A stretch of 10,951 bases of DNA from the IMG/VR virus record IMGVR_UViG_3300045988_174840; one strand, 5' to 3'. This document shows, in pieces, positions 674-10,951 of this stretch (the stretch's first letter is position 1; each line of letters opens with the position of its first letter). Made by a program: the position numbers and the translations under genes. The stretch is from a virus. Below the pieces are notes generated by a model. That model saw only the letters and a list, made by a program, of their open reading frames with translations, did no database searches and had not been told where the DNA came from.

Positions 674-1786
674 TTAAAGTGCATAATGAATTCTTTCACT
701 AGGAATTTTTTTAATCAGCATATATTCTGGTTTTGCAGAAATATATTTATTGTAAAGCTCTAAGCTTTGTTTAACTTCTGAATCATTTAAGCTTTCATTA
801 ATAACACACTGTAAAGATTTACCTGGAATAATACAGCCATGTTCTTTATTGTAAATAGCATCTTTTGGGTTGAAAGTACACATTAGTACGTCAAACTTAA
901 AAACGCTATCTTCAAATTCATAGATTCTGCTCTTATTATCAAACATATCTACTAAACAATGGGGACATTCCGCAATAGCTCCATTCGAAAAATGAATAGT
1001 TAAATTATAATTATCACCAGTAAGATGCAAAATATTCAAATCTTTAATAGCCTCTTCAAAAGTTTCTTCGTTTTGTAATTCAAAAGCAATGGCTCTTAAA
1101 CAATCATAATTCAAATATATTTTTTCTGAAAAACTAATTATTTTATCAATTTCTTTATATTGAGATTTTAAGAGATGATCTTCCATATACTCACGAATTT
1201 CCTCTGGGGTCGGATATTCAAAGCGGAAGTGATAATGAAAACGCCCTGGTCTATTAACTAAATAATTATTTAATCCTGTTAAAATATTACAAGTAATAAC
1301 AAAAAGTTTTTTACCCATGGCTATTCCATCAAACAAACTTAGCAATTCTGTTTGAGCTTTTTCATTTCCACTTCTGGAAAAAGTCTTATCAAATTCATCA
1401 AAAAGAATTATCACTTCTTGATTAATAGAGTTAAGATAACTTGCTATACCAGGTATATAGTTATTGACAATAATAATTGGATAACCTTTTTTAATACCTT
1501 CAATAGCAAGAAGTTTTGAGAATAGAGATTTACCAATCCCTTTATCCCCGCTTAATATAACTCCTAAGTTGCGGTCAAACTTAGCGTAAGACCTTAGTAC
1601 TTTCTGTACTTTTGATAAATGGACACCATAAATTTTTTCATTTACTTTAATTTCTGCATATTTTTCTAAAGAAAAACCAGAATTGGGATTAAAACAAACT
1701 TGATACGATTGCGGCGGGAGTTGCGTATAAATTTGCATACTGTCATCATAAATTTTAAAGTTATTTCCAGTATTTATTGCTCTCAT
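674..1786 (-). CDS. Classic-clade AAA ATPase (370 aa) with an uncharacterised Cys-containing C-terminal extension of about 130 aa
   Basis: Walker A GDKGIGKS. Walker B IILFDEFD. Sensor-1 ITCN. Second region of homology VNRPGRFHYHFRF, the RPGRF hallmark of FtsH/Cdc48/Vps4-type AAA. SD AAAGGAA. Own promoter TTGATT-17-TATAAT at 1811-1839. Confidence 0.85.
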   Translation of the reverse strand: MRAINTGNNFKIYDDSMQIYTQLPPQSYQVCFNPNSGFSLEKYAEIKVNEKIYGVHLSKVQKVLRSYAKFDRNLGVILSGDKGIGKSLFSKLLAIEGIKKGYPIIIVNNYIPGIASYLNSINQEVIILFDEFDKTFSRSGNEKAQTELLSLFDGIAMGKKLFVITCNILTGLNNYLVNRPGRFHYHFRFEYPTPEEIREYMEDHLLKSQYKEIDKIISFSEKIYLNYDCLRAIAFELQNEETFEEAIKDLNILHLTGDNYNLTIHFSNGAIAECPHCLVDMFDNKSRIYEFEDSVFKFDVLMCTFNPKDAIYNKEHGCIIPGKSLQCVINESLNDSEVKQSLELYNKYISAKPEYMLIKKIPSERIHYAL

Positions 1787-1810: not shown

Positions 1811-1839
1811 ATTATAGTATATTTTTTTAAAAAAATCAA
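1811..1839 (-). promoter_or_regulatory. Sigma-A type promoter (TTGATT-17 nt-TATAAT) for the AAA ATPase. Its -35 overlaps the stop codon of the SprT-like gene.
   Basis: The reverse complement of 1811-1839 reads TTGATT tttttaaaaaaatatac TATAAT. Confidence 0.6.
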
Positions 1840-2342
1840 TTCCAATTTTGCACGATTCTCAGAGGAGCGTTACAACAACCAGAAGCCAAAGCACTTTCTC
1901 CTCTTGTTAAAGAGGAAGAAACATCTCCACGAGCTACTAGTTTACCGCATTTTTTGCAATAGATTTCATACTTATACAGATCACGATGAGGTTTCCATAT
2001 CTGTCTTTCCGCGAATCGTTTAGGATTTTTAATTCCCATTCTTCGCATCTCTGCTTTCCAATACATATCATGACCATGAGGTTTTCCAGTATCCCATATT
2101 ACAAAAGCATGAGCCAATTCATGCATTGTCGTAGTAATAATTGCTTCTTTTGTTCCAAATTTTAATAATTTTTCAGAAAATTCAATAGATTCAATGTTCA
2201 TAGTACGATCATTTGTATGTTCAAATACAACTCGACCTAACATAGTAACTAAATTAGGATTAATTACGATTGGACAGTAAATTGTTTTATTTCTTTCTTT
2301 TGCGATATAATTACATAAGCTAAGCATTTCTTTTTCAGTCAT
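1836..2342 (-). CDS. SprT-like zinc metalloprotease (168 aa): HExxH domain plus C-terminal zinc ribbon
   Basis: TMHELAHAF (HExxH) is followed by the downstream His/Asp of SprT/Wss1-like folds. The C-terminus has CKKCGK...GCCNAP (a Cys4 ribbon). The gene lies directly upstream of the AAA ATPase on the same strand. Confidence 0.75.
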   Translation of the reverse strand: MTEKEMLSLCNYIAKERNKTIYCPIVINPNLVTMLGRVVFEHTNDRTMNIESIEFSEKLLKFGTKEAIITTTMHELAHAFVIWDTGKPHGHDMYWKAEMRRMGIKNPKRFAERQIWKPHRDLYKYEIYCKKCGKLVARGDVSSSLTRGESALASGCCNAPLRIVQNWN

Positions 2343-3253: not shown

Positions 3254-3868
3254 ATGGAAAATTTAACGAATATAATGTATTTATATCTATTGATTCATCA
3301 AGGACATTTTGAAAAGGTGAATTATAGTAAGATATCTAAAGAGTTAGGTGTAACTAGACAAACACTATCAAAACAATATAATTCATTACTAGATAATGAA
3401 ATGATAATAAAAGATGATTTTGGTTTTATTAAAGTTAAAGAAGTTTTAGAATTTGATGAAGAAGATTTAGAAATTATTAAAAATAAAATAGTAGAATATC
3501 CTTCTTCTTATATTGGATATTTACTATTAAAAAGAAGATTATTATACGAAACAGATGCTTCTATTTGTAGTATACTAAAGATAAGTGAAAAATTTATTAA
3601 GAATTATCAACAAAAAATTATTTTTGATAAGAATAATGGAGAAGAAGATGTAGTAAACTATATATATGCTATTGTTTTAAATAAAGAAATAAAGTACGTA
3701 GGTTCAACAGAAGATTTAATAAACAGGATACAAATTCATTGCAATAAAAGAAAGTTTTTAGCAGAGAATAATTTTATTATTTTAGAAAAATGTTCGAGGA
3801 AGAATAGATTTGATAGAGAATCTTTTTATAGAAAGTTATTTAATCCAGAATGGAATACAATTATTTAG
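3254..3868 (+). CDS. Fusion protein: N-terminal winged-HTH + C-terminal GIY-YIG nuclease domain (204 aa)
   Basis: SD AAAGGAG is 9 nt upstream. The N-terminal NYSKISKELGVTRQTLSKQYNSL is wHTH-like. The C-terminal NYIYAIV...KYVGSTEDLINRIQIH...FDRESFY...NPEWN matches GIY-x(10)-YIG with the conserved Arg, His, Glu and Asn. Confidence 0.75.
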   Translation: MENLTNIMYLYLLIHQGHFEKVNYSKISKELGVTRQTLSKQYNSLLDNEMIIKDDFGFIKVKEVLEFDEEDLEIIKNKIVEYPSSYIGYLLLKRRLLYETDASICSILKISEKFIKNYQQKIIFDKNNGEEDVVNYIYAIVLNKEIKYVGSTEDLINRIQIHCNKRKFLAENNFIILEKCSRKNRFDRESFYRKLFNPEWNTII

Positions 3869-3879
3869 AGGAAGGAAAA

Positions 3880-4239
3880 ATGGAAACTAGAGAAAATCAA
3901 AAGGTGGTTACAACTATGAAAGCTTTACATGACAGTAATAATTTATATTCTCCAGTTAATATTGAAGCAGCAAGTAAAGCAATGTCTTTGTTAAAACCTA
4001 ATACTTTTAAAATTTGGTTTTATTTAGGAAAAAACCAAGATCAATATACTTTTGCATTATCTAAAATAGATGTTATGAAATTTTGTAATATATCGCGGTC
4101 TACTTATTTATCTTCTATAAAGGAATTGATTGATACACATTATCTAGTTCCAGATAAAGATGGCTCTAATCATTATAATTTTTATGAATTTCCTCAAGAA
4201 GTAGAAGATGATTTGATTATAACAATAAATAAAGGATAA
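3880..4239 (+). CDS. Winged-HTH DNA-binding protein (119 aa), a possible origin-binding or regulatory protein
   Basis: GAGGAAGGAAAA precedes the ATG at 3880; the ORF-track start at 3850 lies inside the upstream gene. FKIWFYLGKNQDQYTFALSKIDVMKFCNISRSTYLSSIKELIDTHYL resembles replisome-organiser/Rep-type wHTH. The iteron region begins 10 bp after its stop. Confidence 0.65.
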   Translation: METRENQKVVTTMKALHDSNNLYSPVNIEAASKAMSLLKPNTFKIWFYLGKNQDQYTFALSKIDVMKFCNISRSTYLSSIKELIDTHYLVPDKDGSNHYNFYEFPQEVEDDLIITINKG

Positions 4240-4249
4240 AATAAAGATA

Positions 4250-4289
4250 GGTATAATTTTAATACCCTTAAGGGTATTAAAATTATACC
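4250..4289. repeat. Perfect 18-bp inverted repeat GGTATAATTTTAATACCC-TTAA-GGGTATTAAAATTATACC (an iteron core in inverted orientation)
   Basis: The arms 4250-4267 and 4272-4289 are exact reverse complements. Confidence 0.9.
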
Positions 4290-4291
4290 TC

Positions 4292-4318
4292 AGTGGTATT
4301 AAAATTATACCAGAAATA
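4292..4318 (+). repeat. Iteron-like 27-bp direct repeat AGTGGTATTAAAATTATACCAGAAATA, copy 1. The core GGTATTAAAATTATACC also occurs at 4273-4289.
   Basis: Identical to 4466-4492. Both copies are followed by similar AT-rich TATATTATA tracts. Confidence 0.85.
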
Positions 4319-4338
4319 ATACATATATTATATTATAA

Positions 4339-4406
4339 AAGAAGTAATTTCATTACTTCGTATTCAAGCACTTCGTGCTTTCATACTCGTAATGAAATTA
4401 CTTCTT
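4339..4406. repeat. Large composite palindrome: 18-bp outer arms AAGAAGTAATTTCATTAC / GTAATGAAATTACTTCTT enclosing an inner hairpin AGCAC-TTC-GTGCT
   Basis: The outer arms 4339-4356 and 4389-4406 are exact reverse complements. The inner hairpin is at 4367-4379. Confidence 0.85.
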
Positions 4407-4465
4407 AGCCGCCGATAATTTTGCAAAATGTCGAAAAAGTGTAACACAATATAATATAATATAAT

Positions 4466-4492
4466 AGTGGTATTAAAATTATACCAGAAATA
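4466..4492 (+). repeat. Iteron-like 27-bp direct repeat, copy 2
   Basis: Exact copy of 4292-4318, 174 bp away. Confidence 0.85.
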
Positions 4493-4545
4493 TTACATAT
4501 TATACTATATTATATTATATAACTATTATATAATAATAATAATAT

Positions 4546-4582
4546 AGGTAATGTATCATACCTTCGGTATGATACATTACCT
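4546..4582. repeat. Perfect 17-bp-stem hairpin AGGTAATGTATCATACC-TTC-GGTATGATACATTACCT (a UUCG-type loop)
   Basis: Exact inverted repeat. It lies at the boundary between the AT-rich origin-like region and the purine tract. Confidence 0.85.
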
Positions 4583-4599
4583 TAGTGTAAATTAAAATG

Positions 4600-5400
4600 A
4601 AGAGTTTTATGCGGGGTGGGGTATTTAGTAGTTGAATCCGCTTTGTTTTAGAGGGACTCTTGTTTAATTTTAAAATGTCAAGGAACGTTTTAAAAAATGA
4701 TTTGAAAATTTTAAGGTTTAAGTAAATTAGGAAAGTTTTTCGGAAGGCATGAGAAAAAGTAAGAAAAGAAGTATGGTATATTTAGAGAATGGCAAAGAAT
4801 ATTACTGAATAATAACAAAGAGTTAGAGAGTTTTGTTAAAAACGAGTTATGGTTTTTTGGTTAGAAAAGTGTGGAAGAGGGTATTTAAATTATAAGAGAA
4901 GTATGGGAGTGCGGAATTGAATTTAATTAAAGTGCTTCCGCATTTAAAAAGCAAGGTTAAATAAAAATTGCGGGTTACAGAATTGCTTAAATAAAATTAT
5001 TAAAATTTTGCGTGAGGAGTTTGATTTTGGAGAGAATTAAGGGTAGCTTTAATAAAATATAAAGATTGGATTAAAGGTGCGTAAGGTTAAGATAATAAAA
5101 TATTTTAGAATTAGAGGGAATTGATGATAGGTTAATAAAAATAATAAGACTGAGTAAAGAGAATTTAATGTTTGGATTAAGAGAAAGTATAAGTTAGATT
5201 AAGAGAGAAGAAGGTTGAAGTATATAAAATAATAAGCGGAAGTGAGGATTTTGAGATTGGGTTAAGAGAGGAGTGAGATTAGAGTGAGAGAGCGTAGAAT
5301 TGGAGTGTAGAGAGGATGAGAGTGAGGCGTGAGTGGAGAAAGGATAGAGCGAGGCTGAAAAAATGCGAGAAAAAGGTGAAAAAAATTGTGAGAGTGAAGT
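4600..5400 (+). repeat. ~800-bp non-coding tract that is almost cytosine-free on the + strand (G/A/T only). It carries degenerate GATTAAGAGAG-type repeats.
   Basis: By eye there are about 40 C in about 800 nt, against abundant G. The motif (G/A)GATTAAGAGAG(G/A)AG recurs near 5068, 5174, 5196 and 5258. There is no SD-led ORF of meaningful length. Confidence 0.8.
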
Positions 5401-6052: not shown

Positions 6053-6187
6053 GCGGAGAGAGGTGAGGTATGTTAAAATTGCGGGATTCTAGAGTAGTGA
6101 TTCAAAATTCCAAACATCTAGGAAAAAAGCCCATATAGGCGATCTTTGTGGTAGGTCGGATCCGAGTCCTTTGAACTCGGACCGCTG

Positions 6188-6216
6188 ATTATATCACAGC
6201 CGCCGCGTTTTGTCAA
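6188..6216 (-). promoter_or_regulatory. Consensus promoter TTGACA-17-TGaTATAAT. Its transcript would begin at the 6154-6185 hairpin.
   Basis: The reverse complement reads TTGACA aaacgcggcggctgtga TATAAT. Confidence 0.6.
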
Positions 6217-6498: not shown

Positions 6499-6900
6499 TT
6501 ACTCCTCTACAGCTTCCTCTTCCTCTTCCTCTTTTGCAAGAGAGAAATAAGGAACTCTTTTTTCAACTGTTCTAACTACCTCTCCAGATTCGATAAGCTG
6601 TTTAAGAAGAGCCGATAATTTCTGAGAAGAAAGTTTACTCATTTCAGAGTTTTCCTTAATCATGGTTGAAACTGTAACAGGTTTATCAAATAACTCCAAA
6701 GCTACAAGAATAAGTTTTTTGACTTCCTCATTTTCTTTCTGGTTTTTGGTTTTTTTACCGCTGGAAGATTTTTTATTCAACAGCTCGATTTCATGTCTGA
6801 GAAAGTTAAGTGCTTCTTCTTTTGGTTCAAAGCTACTTTCTTCCAGAAAAGCACTGATAGTTTCAAACCAATCTTTTTTTGTCATTTTGTCTTTCATCAT
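6499..6900 (-). CDS. Winged-helix-like protein with a poly-Glu C-terminal tail (~133 aa), paralog A. Start is ATG 6900 (or 6897); the ATG at 6906 is too close to the SD.
   Basis: The C-terminal 85 aa (KPVTVSTMIKENSEMSKLSSQKLSALLKQLIESGEVVRTVEKRVPYFSLAKEEEEEE) are about 85% identical to 8803..9210. Helix-turn-helix-wing pattern. Promoter at 6934-6962. Confidence 0.75.
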   Translation of the reverse strand: MMKDKMTKKDWFETISAFLEESSFEPKEEALNFLRHEIELLNKKSSSGKKTKNQKENEEVKKLILVALELFDKPVTVSTMIKENSEMSKLSSQKLSALLKQLIESGEVVRTVEKRVPYFSLAKEEEEEEAVEE

Positions 6901-6933
6901 ATTCATTACCTCTTTCTTTCTTTTGATATATTT

Positions 6934-6962
6934 ATTATAGCATACTTTTTTGTTTTTGTCAA
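6934..6962 (-). promoter_or_regulatory. Consensus promoter TTGACA-17-TGcTATAAT followed by the conserved leader ATATCAAAAGAAAGAGG
   Basis: The reverse complement reads TTGACA aaaacaaaaaagtatgc TATAAT. Confidence 0.6.
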
Positions 6963-6978
6963 TTACTTTTTTTATTTT

Positions 6979-7182
6979 TTAATTTTTTCCAAGATACTCT
7001 TCAAGATGCTCGTTTAAGAAATTTATAGTTTCATCCAACCCGCAAATCTCACAAAAGTTTTTAAAAGCTTTTTCAAGTTCTTTTTTTCTAGTTGCTTTTA
7101 TTAATTTAATACAACTCTCATAATCTTCTTTTGTAATAACAAAAGGAACGCATCCATCTTTTTTCAATGTAAATTTTTCCAT
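6979..7182 (-). CDS. Hypothetical small protein (67 aa, several Cys)
   Basis: SD AGAGAGG is 9 nt before the ATG. Promoter at 7215-7243. Confidence 0.55.
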   Translation of the reverse strand: MEKFTLKKDGCVPFVITKEDYESCIKLIKATRKKELEKAFKNFCEICGLDETINFLNEHLEEYLGKN

Positions 7183-8164: not shown

Positions 8165-8199
8165 ATTAAATACCTCTTTCTTATTTATTTTATGTATAC

Positions 8200-8228
8200 A
8201 TTATATCAAAAGAAAAAATAAAAGTCAA
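8200..8228 (-). promoter_or_regulatory. Promoter TTGACT-17-TGaTATAAT
   Basis: The reverse complement reads TTGACT tttattttttcttttga TATAAT. Confidence 0.6.
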
Positions 8229-8419
8229 TGGCATTTTGCACAAAGTATAATAAAATATTTTGTCTATTTTGACTATTGACAAGTTTAGCATTGTGCATAA
8301 CAGAGAAAATTGGCGAATTTTGATATAAATTTTTGTTCATTTTACCTATTGACAAAGAATTTTGTGCAAAACAGAGAATTTTGGGATAAAAAATTTTTTA
8401 TTTTTGTGCATTTTTTCTC

Positions 8420-8448
8420 TTGACAAAATTGTTAGCGTGTGATATAAT
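8420..8448 (+). promoter_or_regulatory. Consensus promoter TTGACA-17-TGaTATAAT on the + strand. It forms the left arm of the 8420-8513 palindrome and has no ORF downstream.
   Basis: TTGACA at 8420-8425, 17-nt spacer, TATAAT at 8443-8448. Confidence 0.55.
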
Positions 8449-8457
8449 GGATATTTC

Positions 8458-8480
8458 GGTCGCCTTGATCCAAGGCGACC
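8458..8480. repeat. GC-rich perfect hairpin GGTCGCCTT-GATCC-AAGGCGACC at the centre of the promoter palindrome
   Basis: The 9-bp arms are exact reverse complements. It sits at the predicted +1 of both flanking promoters. Confidence 0.85.
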
Positions 8481-8484
8481 CGCT

Positions 8485-8513
8485 ATTATATCACACTTTC
8501 GGGTGCTTGTCAA
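8485..8513 (-). promoter_or_regulatory. Consensus promoter TTGACA-17-TGaTATAAT on the - strand. It forms the right arm of the palindrome and points toward the small-gene array.
   Basis: The reverse complement reads TTGACA agcacccgaaagtgtga TATAAT. Confidence 0.55.
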
Positions 8514-8802
8514 TAGGCAAAATAAACAAAATTAAAAAATTTTTGAGCATTATCTTTGTTACATTTTCACAAAATTATAGACTGGAACTCTTTGTGCAAC
8601 AATACCAAAATTATAAAAATTTTTTAGCTATTTTTTGTAATTTATGTACATTGACTTTTTTGTTCTCTGGTATTTTTGAATAAAAAACATCCCTCCAGCA
8701 GCGGATTTTTTGTGCAAAAAGTAGAAAAAAAAATGCACAAAAAGGAGGACGGATTTTGTGCAATCCGCCCTCTTGACAAGGTTTATAAGTTACTTTTTAG
8801 TT

Positions 8803-9210
8803 TTACTCTTCTTCCTCAACTTCTTCTTCTTTTGCAAGAGAAAAGTAAGGAACTCTTTTTTCAACTGTCCTGACCACTTTGCCTGCCTCAATCATTTTTT
8901 TCAACAGTGCAGATAACTTCTGAGAAGAAAGCTTACTCATTTCGGCGTTCTCTTTAATCATTGTAGTTACCGTGACAGGTTTACCAAACAGCTCTAAGGC
9001 AATTCCAATAAGTTCCATAAGCTCCTCATTTTCTTTAATGTGAGCTGTTTTCTTTTTGCCTGGTGCTGAAGATTTCTTATTTAACAGTTCAATCTCGTGA
9101 TTGATGAAGTCAAGTGTTTCTATTTTTTTGTCAAAGTTTTCGGTTTTTTCTACGATGCCAACCAGCAGTTTGAAAAAGTCTTTTTTTGTCATTTTTGTTG
9201 TGTTTGTCAT
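8803..9210 (-). CDS. Winged-helix-like protein with an acidic C-terminal tail (135 aa), paralog B
   Basis: SD AAGAGGA is 8 nt before the ATG. Promoter at 9323-9351. The C-terminus KPVTVTTMIKENAEMSKLSSQKLSALLKKMIEAGKVVRTVEKRVPYFSLAKEEEVEEEE matches paralog A. Confidence 0.75.
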   Translation of the reverse strand: MTNTTKMTKKDFFKLLVGIVEKTENFDKKIETLDFINHEIELLNKKSSAPGKKKTAHIKENEELMELIGIALELFGKPVTVTTMIKENAEMSKLSSQKLSALLKKMIEAGKVVRTVEKRVPYFSLAKEEEVEEEE

Positions 9211-9292: not shown

Positions 9293-9322
9293 TGAAATTA
9301 TTTACTACTTTGTTACAATACT

Positions 9323-9351
9323 ATTGTACTACTTCTTTTTACTTTTGTCAA
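9323..9351 (-). promoter_or_regulatory. Consensus promoter TTGACA-17-TACAAT followed by the palindromic TTGTAACAA leader element
   Basis: The reverse complement reads TTGACA aaagtaaaaagaagtag TACAAT agtaTTGTAACAAag. Confidence 0.6.
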
Positions 9352-10096: not shown

Positions 10097-10160
10097 TTTA
10101 CTATTAACTTGTTACAATGGTATTATATCGCACCTTAGCTTAAAAGTCAAGCATTTTCGT
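10097..10160. repeat. Perfect 64-bp direct repeat, copy A (promoter + leader + last 5 codons of the exonuclease gene)
   Basis: Identical to 10888-10951 at an offset of 791 bp. Confidence 0.9.
10122..10150 (-). promoter_or_regulatory. Consensus promoter TTGACT-17-TATAAT plus a TTGTAACAA leader, lying within the 64-bp direct-repeat copy A. Its -35 overlaps the exonuclease stop codon.
   Basis: The reverse complement reads TTGACT tttaagctaaggtgcga TATAAT accaTTGTAACAAg. Confidence 0.6.
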
Positions 10161-10857
10161 GTAATTCTTTTCTTTTTTTCTGCGGCAGTCTCCAACATGA
10201 CGGCTTAATACTTCTATCCATTTTTTTATGCTGGTCAAAACATTTTTTCATAATTTCAATTTCAATTTTTACATCTTCTAAACCTGTATGAGATTCTACA
10301 AAATCAATATTCTTTTTAATATATTTATAGCATACCTCAGCGTTAGTTAAAAGATTGCCTTTTTCAGACTCAAATCCGTTTTTCTCAGCAAATTTGATAT
10401 AGGTGTTTGTACTTAAAATCATCTGGCAAGCCATATTCCAAATACAAAAATATTCTGTGCCATAAGGGAAAAACCAGCGAATAAAACTTTTGCTATGGTA
10501 TCTAATAGCATTGTTTAATGCTTTTCTATCAAAATTCATATTGTAAGCACCAACTTTTTTCACATTATATTCTTTCATGTCTGCAAACATCTGTTTTCTA
10601 ATATTGAAGATGCTTTTCATGGTTCTTTTTCCGCTTTTTAAATCATCCCAATATTTTGGGATTTTTTTAGCGTAGTAGGCACTATTCATAGCTTCTTTCA
10701 AGTCAATAAATGTCTCAGCGACTACAAAGCTTCTTTCGGTGACAATGTTACCGTGTCTATCTGCAATAGCATAACCAATATCATAAGGGATTGGCTCATT
10801 TACACTATTCGCAGTTTCTGTATCCAATACCATGAAAAACTCTTTTCTTCTACTCAT
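10147..10857 (-). CDS. DEDDh (DnaQ-like) 3'-5' exonuclease, ~236 aa. Start is ATG 10857; the ORF-track start at 10872 is a TTG with no SD.
   Basis: Exo I MVLDTETAN. Exo II VGAYNMNFDRKAL. Exo III HTGLEDV (H-x4-D). GAGGAAA lies 6 nt before ATG 10857. Promoter copy B is at 10913-10941. Confidence 0.8.
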   Translation of the reverse strand: MSRRKEFFMVLDTETANSVNEPIPYDIGYAIADRHGNIVTERSFVVAETFIDLKEAMNSAYYAKKIPKYWDDLKSGKRTMKSIFNIRKQMFADMKEYNVKKVGAYNMNFDRKALNNAIRYHSKSFIRWFFPYGTEYFCIWNMACQMILSTNTYIKFAEKNGFESEKGNLLTNAEVCYKYIKKNIDFVESHTGLEDVKIEIEIMKKCFDQHKKMDRSIKPSCWRLPQKKRKELHENA

Positions 10858-10887
10858 TTTTGATTTCCTCAACTTTCATTTATTTTT

Positions 10888-10951
10888 TTTACTATTAACT
10901 TGTTACAATGGTATTATATCGCACCTTAGCTTAAAAGTCAAGCATTTTCGT
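10888..10951. repeat. Perfect 64-bp direct repeat, copy B (runs to the window edge); contains promoter 10913-10941 for the exonuclease gene
   Basis: Identical to 10097-10160. It includes ...TCAAGCATTTTCGT, the stop codon plus C-terminal codons of an exonuclease-like ORF, which implies a further homologous gene end just beyond the window. Confidence 0.85.

Follow-up and report, generated by a model that had tools for sequence, protein, structure and literature searches.

Promoter-bearing 64-bp direct repeats around a single predicted DEDDh exonuclease gene in an uncultured gut phage

The exonuclease gene and its flanking repeats

The DNA presented here comes from an uncultured gut phage of ~135 kb, which is AT-rich (29% GC, a value shared by the window, that is, the whole stretch of 10,951 nucleotides that was analysed). 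In this region, small genes are arrayed in a single direction, and a near-consensus TTGACA-17-TATAAT promoter and a strong ribosome-binding site (RBS) precede each of them, at intervals of ~250-400 bp; relatives with ~70% identity in the exonuclease have arrays of the same layout. It is probably an early, accessory region, the timing being suggested by analogy. The genes of concern are all encoded on the minus strand, and the features are as follows.

10888-10951, minus strand: copy B of the repeat, predicted promoter of the exonuclease gene, from about -46 to +19 of the predicted start
10941-10936, 10918-10913 and 10908-10900, minus strand: parts of copy B, namely the -35 TTGACT, the -10 TATAAT and TTGTAACAA
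10864-10870, minus strand: RBS of the exonuclease gene, GAGGAAA, read from the sequence and lying outside the repeat
10147-10857, minus strand: gene for a 236-aa predicted DEDDh (DnaQ-fold) 3'-5' exonuclease, single copy, assigned from motifs and fold
10097-10160, minus strand: copy A of the repeat, predicted promoter of gp124 (the 124-aa gene), overlapping the exonuclease stop codon
10150-10145, 10127-10122 and 10117-10109, minus strand: parts of copy A, namely the -35, the -10 and TTGTAACAA
9699-10073, minus strand: gp124, 124 aa, of unknown function, downstream of copy A
9310-9351, minus strand: diverged third member of the promoter sub-family, TTGACA-17-TACAAT-agta-TTGTAACAA, upstream of the 135-aa gene at 8803-9210
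6906-6999, minus strand: another promoter/leader/RBS module, present once here and twice in most sister genomes

The stretches 10097-10160 and 10888-10951 are identical in 64 of 64 bp at an offset of 791 bp, exactly as an earlier sequence-only reading of this DNA had it. For comparison, the longest exact repeat in 200 first-order Markov simulations with the window's composition had a mean length of 14.7 bp and a maximum of 19 bp. The outer edge of copy B (10951) is also the final base of the window; no repeat was detectable at the window's opposite end. The whole window had no matches in Rfam (gathering threshold) or in a tRNA scan, and comparison of the region's DNA with the GenBank phage and PLSDB plasmid collections gave short weak matches or none.

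Each copy spans from 10 bp 5' of the -35 through about +19 and carries, on the minus strand, TTGACT-17-TATAAT, which agrees with the consensus at 11 of 12 bases and is properly placed before the exonuclease gene and gp124, respectively. The promoter that the same reading had proposed for each copy is supported from the sequence, and on the basis of consensus match and position both copies are predicted to be active. In three promoters, a palindrome, TTGTAACAA, lies 4 nt past the -10 and is invariant across lineages. The motif TTGTWACAA occurs at three sites in the window (10109-10117, 10900-10908, and 9310-9318) against 0.21 expected, two of the three stemming from the duplication itself. The leader closest to the TTGTAACAA type is the TGTAAACAA leader, found before genes of the 135-aa family in relatives. 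At -7.7 kcal/mol, the fold of the 64-nt module is not notably more stable than those of shuffled sequences (z = -0.13), which leaves no significant stem-loop, and no terminator was called between the exonuclease gene and the promoter of copy A. As for the inverted repeat over the -35, stems of 5-6 bp were as common in shuffled controls, while stems of at least 7 bp were found in ~6% of the region's promoters versus 1% in controls.

Copy A and the exonuclease gene overlap. The start of the gene in public gene calls is the ATG at 10857, and its TGA stop codon (10149-10147) sits within the -35 of copy A. The conserved part of the protein ends in ...KKRKE(L/M) and the tail beyond it differs between lineages; in the window this tail, HENA, and the stop are encoded by copy A. 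The repeat had been described as holding the last five codons and the stop, which is right for Glu-Asn-Ala and the stop but not for five codons, as only two of the three bases of the His codon are included.

The proposed DEDDh exonuclease identity was borne out by motifs and by fold. Thirty-five homologs sharing 66-93% identity with the query were aligned, and the residues D12, E14, D110, H190, and D195 are invariant among them. D12 and E14, in VLDTETAN, form the D-x-E of motif Exo I; N106, F109, and D110, also invariant, form the N-x2-3-F/Y-D of Exo II; and H190 and D195, in HTGLED, form the H-x4-D of Exo III that characterises the "h" subtype. The AF2 model (pLDDT 82, pTM 0.79) was matched by Foldseek with probability 1.00 to 8h18, RNase T, Orn, REXO2, and ExoI (TM 0.45-0.53), and it also resembles the exonuclease domain of DinG. 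Compared with solved DnaQ-family structures, the predicted model has the RNase H-like alpha/beta fold. At the sequence level, the protein matches the profile phrog_20187 (1e-59), annotated as of unknown function, and, weakly, phrog_192, "DNA polymerase exonuclease subunit" (3e-6). There was nothing in Pfam at E<=0.01, nothing meaningful in NCBIfam, and no PDB entry by sequence at E<=10. The protein is like RNase T, oligoribonuclease, ExoI, the Cas2-fused DnaQ domain (8h18), and the N-terminal domain of DinG in its catalytic DEDD and His residues and in its predicted fold, but differs from these DnaQ-like DEDDh enzymes in belonging to a separate phage family, phrog_20187, with TM values of ~0.5 and no Pfam, NCBIfam, or PDB sequence match. 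With ~3950 homologs in a large protein collection, this identifies a large DEDDh family, invisible to Pfam and conserved beside a nucleotidase-like gene.

Several further features of the array and of the clade were recorded. Consensus promoters placed face to face, with TTGACA-17-TATAAT on each strand, usually with an extended TG, and with their -10s 36-38 bp apart, occur in the window at 8420-8513 and 6140-6216, as well as in L021, L025, L029, and many loci to L086. They enclose a hairpin of 6-11 bp that is GC-rich in this 29% GC genome and has no ORF downstream, in an asymmetric layout, TATAAT-GGAAATTTC-hairpin-CC-ATTATA. The hairpins were folded copy by copy, the stems being out of register in the MAFFT/RNAalifold alignment. 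Among 26 distinct copies, present at 4-6 per 10 kb, the stem sequences differ and the pairing is preserved, and the feature extends to phages whose exonucleases are only ~40% identical. It had no Rfam match and no obvious match in the literature. The hairpin might act as a very small RNA, as a roadblock or insulator for transcription, or as a sink for RNA polymerase, and these face-to-face promoters may perhaps be more novel than the 64-bp repeat.

An ORF-free gap of 640 bp (8165-8802) contains eight of the nine TGCACAA heptamers of the window; over the whole window 1.15 would be expected, and none of 200 shuffles reached nine. The heptamers in the gap are mostly present as TTTTGCACAAAA, and three copies of TTGTCAATAGnnAAAATnnACAAAA are found there too; the TGCACAA and TTGTCAATAGnnAAAATnnACAAAA repeats look like iterons or regulator-binding sites, judging by their sequence. 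Next to this gap is one of two paralogous 135-aa genes (8803-9210 and 6499-6906, minus strand), which share a 226-nt DNA repeat with 77% identity. The family is multi-copy in relatives, and six of seven members stand behind a promoter with the TGTAAACAA leader, akin to TTGTAACAA. On the opposite strand, an ORF at 3254-3868 (plus) resembles an HTH and GIY-YIG nuclease protein (Pfam 1.9e-6); near it, sister genomes differ, having a variant of 204 or 205 aa that is accompanied in some of them by a 119-aa partner. Beyond it, ~1 kb (4240-5190) has no convincing ORFs and holds a spacer-less perfect palindrome of 21+21 nt (4249-4290), a 17-bp hairpin (4546-4582), and 49-nt direct repeats (4278/4452). 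The small-gene array ends with an AAA/nSTAND3-type NTPase (370 aa, 674-1786, minus strand) and a SprT-like metalloprotease (168 aa, 1836-2342, minus strand), and L006, one of the sister genomes, encodes a further SprT-like protein of 121 aa.

Gene order beyond position 10951 and in relatives

The locus was followed past the end of the window in 25 contigs from other assemblies. Ten were reached via the exonuclease protein, ten via gp124, and three by a scan of the JGI metagenome_contigs with a 50-nt core of the repeat, which returned these three contigs only, all in the normal arrangement. The other two, L033 and L035, are diverged lineages reached through proteins 91-93% identical. Many of the contigs measure 90-139 kb, and both MEGAHIT (k119/k141) and SPAdes assemblies are represented. 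Many public metagenome contigs, some of 90-137 kb, encode a protein identical to the 236-aa exonuclease.

In every case (25 of 25), the order was a HAD-like gene, an ORF of 59-61 aa, the repeat, the exonuclease gene, the repeat, and gp124. The first of these encodes a HAD/5'-nucleotidase-like (NT5C-like) protein of 157 aa, and the second, small and Cys-rich, is unrelated to the exonuclease and lies in a different reading frame. The length of the repeat varies from 61 to 64 bp across the contigs. Within the lineage of the window, the length is 64 bp exactly, with copy B starting directly after the TAA stop codon of the 59-aa ORF and copies A and B diverging beyond the base equivalent to 10951. 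By tblastn, each locus has one exonuclease gene (26 sequences, ten of the loci searched within 10 kb on each side). The sequence-only reading had placed a second gene with the same 3' end just past copy B, as part of a tandem array of exonuclease-type cassettes, and neither the gene nor the array was found: extension past 10951 revealed no exonuclease paralog. Since in these contigs the repeat stops at the base matching 10951 and the gene before it is unrelated, only the promoter has been duplicated.

Both copies lie deep inside long contigs produced by several assemblers, and because MEGAHIT k119/k141 and SPAdes assemblies all show the repeat, it is not an artefact of one assembler. The window most likely ends because the assembly broke at the repeat, the assembler being unable to extend through sequence already used. 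The short Logan contig L035 likewise begins at the edge of the repeat, a second case of the same break.

The wider family dates the repeat. In five relatives with ~70% exonuclease identity (L021, L025, L029, L091, and L040), the promoters on either side of the exonuclease gene are unrelated to each other, and the duplication is therefore limited to the clade with at least 91% identity in the exonuclease protein. Some of these ~70% relatives have a terminator after the exonuclease gene, and their gp124 homologs are found in other locations, behind different promoters. The closest cultured relatives are Enterococcus phages of ~134-142 kb with ~45% exonuclease identity, which show a similar order of HAD-like hydrolase, hypothetical gene, and "exodeoxyribonuclease"; in Enterococcus phage H1, the gene annotated "exodeoxyribonuclease" lies beside the HAD-like gene without the repeat. 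Judged from these gene orders, the HAD-exonuclease neighbourhood predates the repeat, which argues against the arrival of the exonuclease as an inserted cassette. As to whether copy A or copy B is ancestral, no close promoter was found among 146 ranked from the ~70% relatives (best 27 of 52 positions outside the hexamers, mean 18), and those that precede the exonuclease gene were not regularly closer to the module than the others.

More distant relatives are found in the phAss-1 group of gut phages, a group reported to recode TAG stop codons (PMC10607447); the genes of the window read normally in code 11. The metagenome-assembled genome (MAG) labels of related contigs conflict (Clostridium, Prevotellaceae, Erysipelotrichaceae, Treponema, and others), and, being mutually inconsistent, they point to no one host; the host is probably a member of the Bacillota.

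Copies A and B evolve in concert

Within a genome, copies A and B differ at no position in the window, at two in L033, and at six in L035, while the modules of the window differ from those of L033 and L035 at 8-10 positions. The exonuclease DNA of these two lineages is 83-85% identical to that of the window. The bases in question change together: at column 8 of the alignment, copies A and B read T/T in the window, C/C in L033, and G/G in L035, and columns 19 and 24-27 likewise co-vary in both copies. Moreover, the variants G22A and G28A are carried by copy A in some genomes of the window's species and by copy B in others. Copy A of L035 carries a patch, AAGTAGTA, identical to the member at 9310-9351. 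The two copies thus evolve in concert, and gene conversion within the promoter sub-family would be the most economical explanation. The recombination between copies anticipated in the sequence-only reading is accordingly supported by the concerted evolution and the shared variant bases, as far as can be judged from sequence patterns.

Elsewhere in the region, cassettes have been gained and lost. In pairwise comparisons of 21 near-identical sequences, pairs of aligned segments were sought with an overlap in the shorter genome and additional DNA between them in the longer, and ~30 distinct cassette insertions or deletions were found, most with overlaps of 50-105 nt that correspond to promoter/leader/RBS modules. 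The module at 6906-6999 illustrates how a cassette is gained or lost between promoter repeats. Most sister genomes have there a 62-aa gene between perfect repeats of 66 bp, in a unit of 282 bp (13886-14233 in L001), and this cassette is missing from the window and from L009, where one copy of the repeat is left, and from L017, which has a larger deletion at this place. Loop-skipping by a low-k assembler could mimic the deletion of the 62-aa cassette in the window; several of the other events are seen in k119/k141 assemblies, at repeats shorter than k. Long perfect promoter repeats, of 40-74 bp, are present in other relatives too.

No genome without the exonuclease cassette, or with the cassette duplicated, was found among the 25 contigs. 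Junction scans of viral_contigs gave zero for deletion and zero for duplication or circle, and zero also for the normal junction used as a positive control, the phage being absent from that collection.

Explanations for the repeat and likeness to known systems

Taken together, the observations are very probably explained by one promoter module that occupies two adjacent positions around a single exonuclease gene and is homogenised by recombination, with the window ending at an assembly break. The module would have been copied into two adjacent intergenic positions, so that copy B would drive the exonuclease gene and copy A gp124, and copy A would abut the exonuclease coding sequence closely enough to supply its final four residues and stop. 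Recombination between the copies (gene conversion) would keep them near-identical, and similar homology among promoter modules would provide the sites of cassette gain and loss elsewhere in the region. The contig would have stopped where a short-read assembler met repeat sequence that it had already traversed.

Two other explanations bear on the end of the window. If the 791-bp unit of promoter and exonuclease gene were repeated head to tail, with a second gene past 10951, a collapsed tandem duplication would also yield a window that ends at the repeat. This is very improbable, given that the 25 other contigs all run into the unrelated 59-61-aa ORF and the HAD-like gene, that each locus has a single exonuclease gene and the identity within the window's own lineage stops at the base matching 10951, and that k119/k141 assemblies cross both copies unbranched, which a duplication junction would prevent. 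The position of copy B at the extreme end of the window could also suggest a chimeric contig end that is absent from the genome; since both copies are found deep in long contigs from many samples and different assemblers, this is almost certainly not the case.

The bracketing of a single gene by direct repeats might also reflect a mobile cassette, in which site-specific or transpositional insertion of the exonuclease gene duplicated the 64 bp as an att-like or target duplication. However, the unit has no recombinase or transposase, only the exonuclease gene; at 64 bp, the repeat far exceeds a target-site duplication and constitutes an entire promoter; none of the 25 contigs has an empty site; and the exonuclease gene is beside the HAD-like gene in distant relatives that have no repeat, such as Enterococcus phage H1, so it is ancestral at this position. 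We give this origin as little credence as the head-to-tail array. Selection would account for the likeness of the copies in another way, were these and the member at 9310-9351 the operator-bearing promoters of one regulon, kept alike without gene conversion. Candidates for the operator are TTGTAACAA, located at the start site, and GCTTGAC...AAGC, which covers the -35. The constant 4-nt distance of the former from the -10 in three promoters and its invariance in all lineages would fit, as would the palindrome over the -35, perfect in L033 and L035, and the HTH-like ORFs nearby, at 2510-2749, 3254-3868, and 3850-4239 on the other strand and with weak matches. Against this, the co-variation includes spacer and upstream bases with no palindromic pattern, identical rare variant bases switch between the positions of copy A and copy B, the 5-6-bp stem over the -35 is no commoner than in shuffled controls, and no regulator was identified. 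Selection of this kind is therefore unlikely to be the explanation, and homogenisation of a duplicated promoter module by recombination is preferred.

Large Bacillota phages offer a parallel in layout. The "host-takeover module" of SPO1 and the early regions of similar phages are dense in one-directional small genes of unknown function, all or nearly all of which have their own strong promoter for the host sigma factor and a strong ribosome-binding site. The likeness of the present array to the SPO1-type module is one of layout alone, and early timing is suggested here by analogy.

A closer comparison is with the PeSLs (promoter-early stem-loop cassettes) of T4-like phages (Arbiol et al. 2010, PMC2839356; Comeau et al. 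2014, PMC4122927), in which orphan genes lie between consensus early promoters and are shuffled by way of them, homologous recombination between modules being the proposed mechanism (PMC2839356, PMC4122927). As in PeSLs, sigma-70-consensus promoter modules are repeated in a plastic region rich in small orphan genes, the stop codon of the preceding gene marks the start of the module (it abuts copy B and lies inside copy A), and single genes lie between two modules, with gene and one module replaced by a single module in close relatives. Indel breakpoints also fall in modules here, in the 62-aa cassette and ~30 other events, none of them seen for the exonuclease cassette. Unlike PeSLs, the 64-bp module has no significant stem-loop or terminator (z = -0.13), the phage is a ~135-kb gut phage with a probable Bacillota host, unrelated to T4, and the concerted evolution and near-identity of two specific copies are not a described PeSL feature. 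The module therefore resembles PeSLs in the recombination sense and stands outside the class as defined. It is rather doubtful, with a small chance of being right, that the exonuclease unit is itself an active PeSL-like mobile cassette, in which recombination between the copies would release a 791-bp circle of one promoter and the exonuclease gene. Any member of the promoter sub-family, such as that at 9310-9351, could then serve as a site of re-entry for the circle; neither loss nor a circle of the cassette was seen in the 25 contigs.

For the reading of assembled phage genomes, a perfect repeat that touches the end of a window is to be taken first as an assembly break, and no second gene is hidden here. 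For the biology of these phages, the promoter modules would double as expression signals and as tracts of homology for the shuffling of accessory genes. Detailed accounts of such shuffling come mainly from T4-like coliphages, and its occurrence in an abundant, uncultured gut lineage of ~135 kb suggests that it is general. Were the exonuclease unit an active mobile cassette of the PeSL-like kind, promoter-borne gene mobility together with the concerted evolution of promoters would act as a general driver of the turnover of accessory genes in this large clade.
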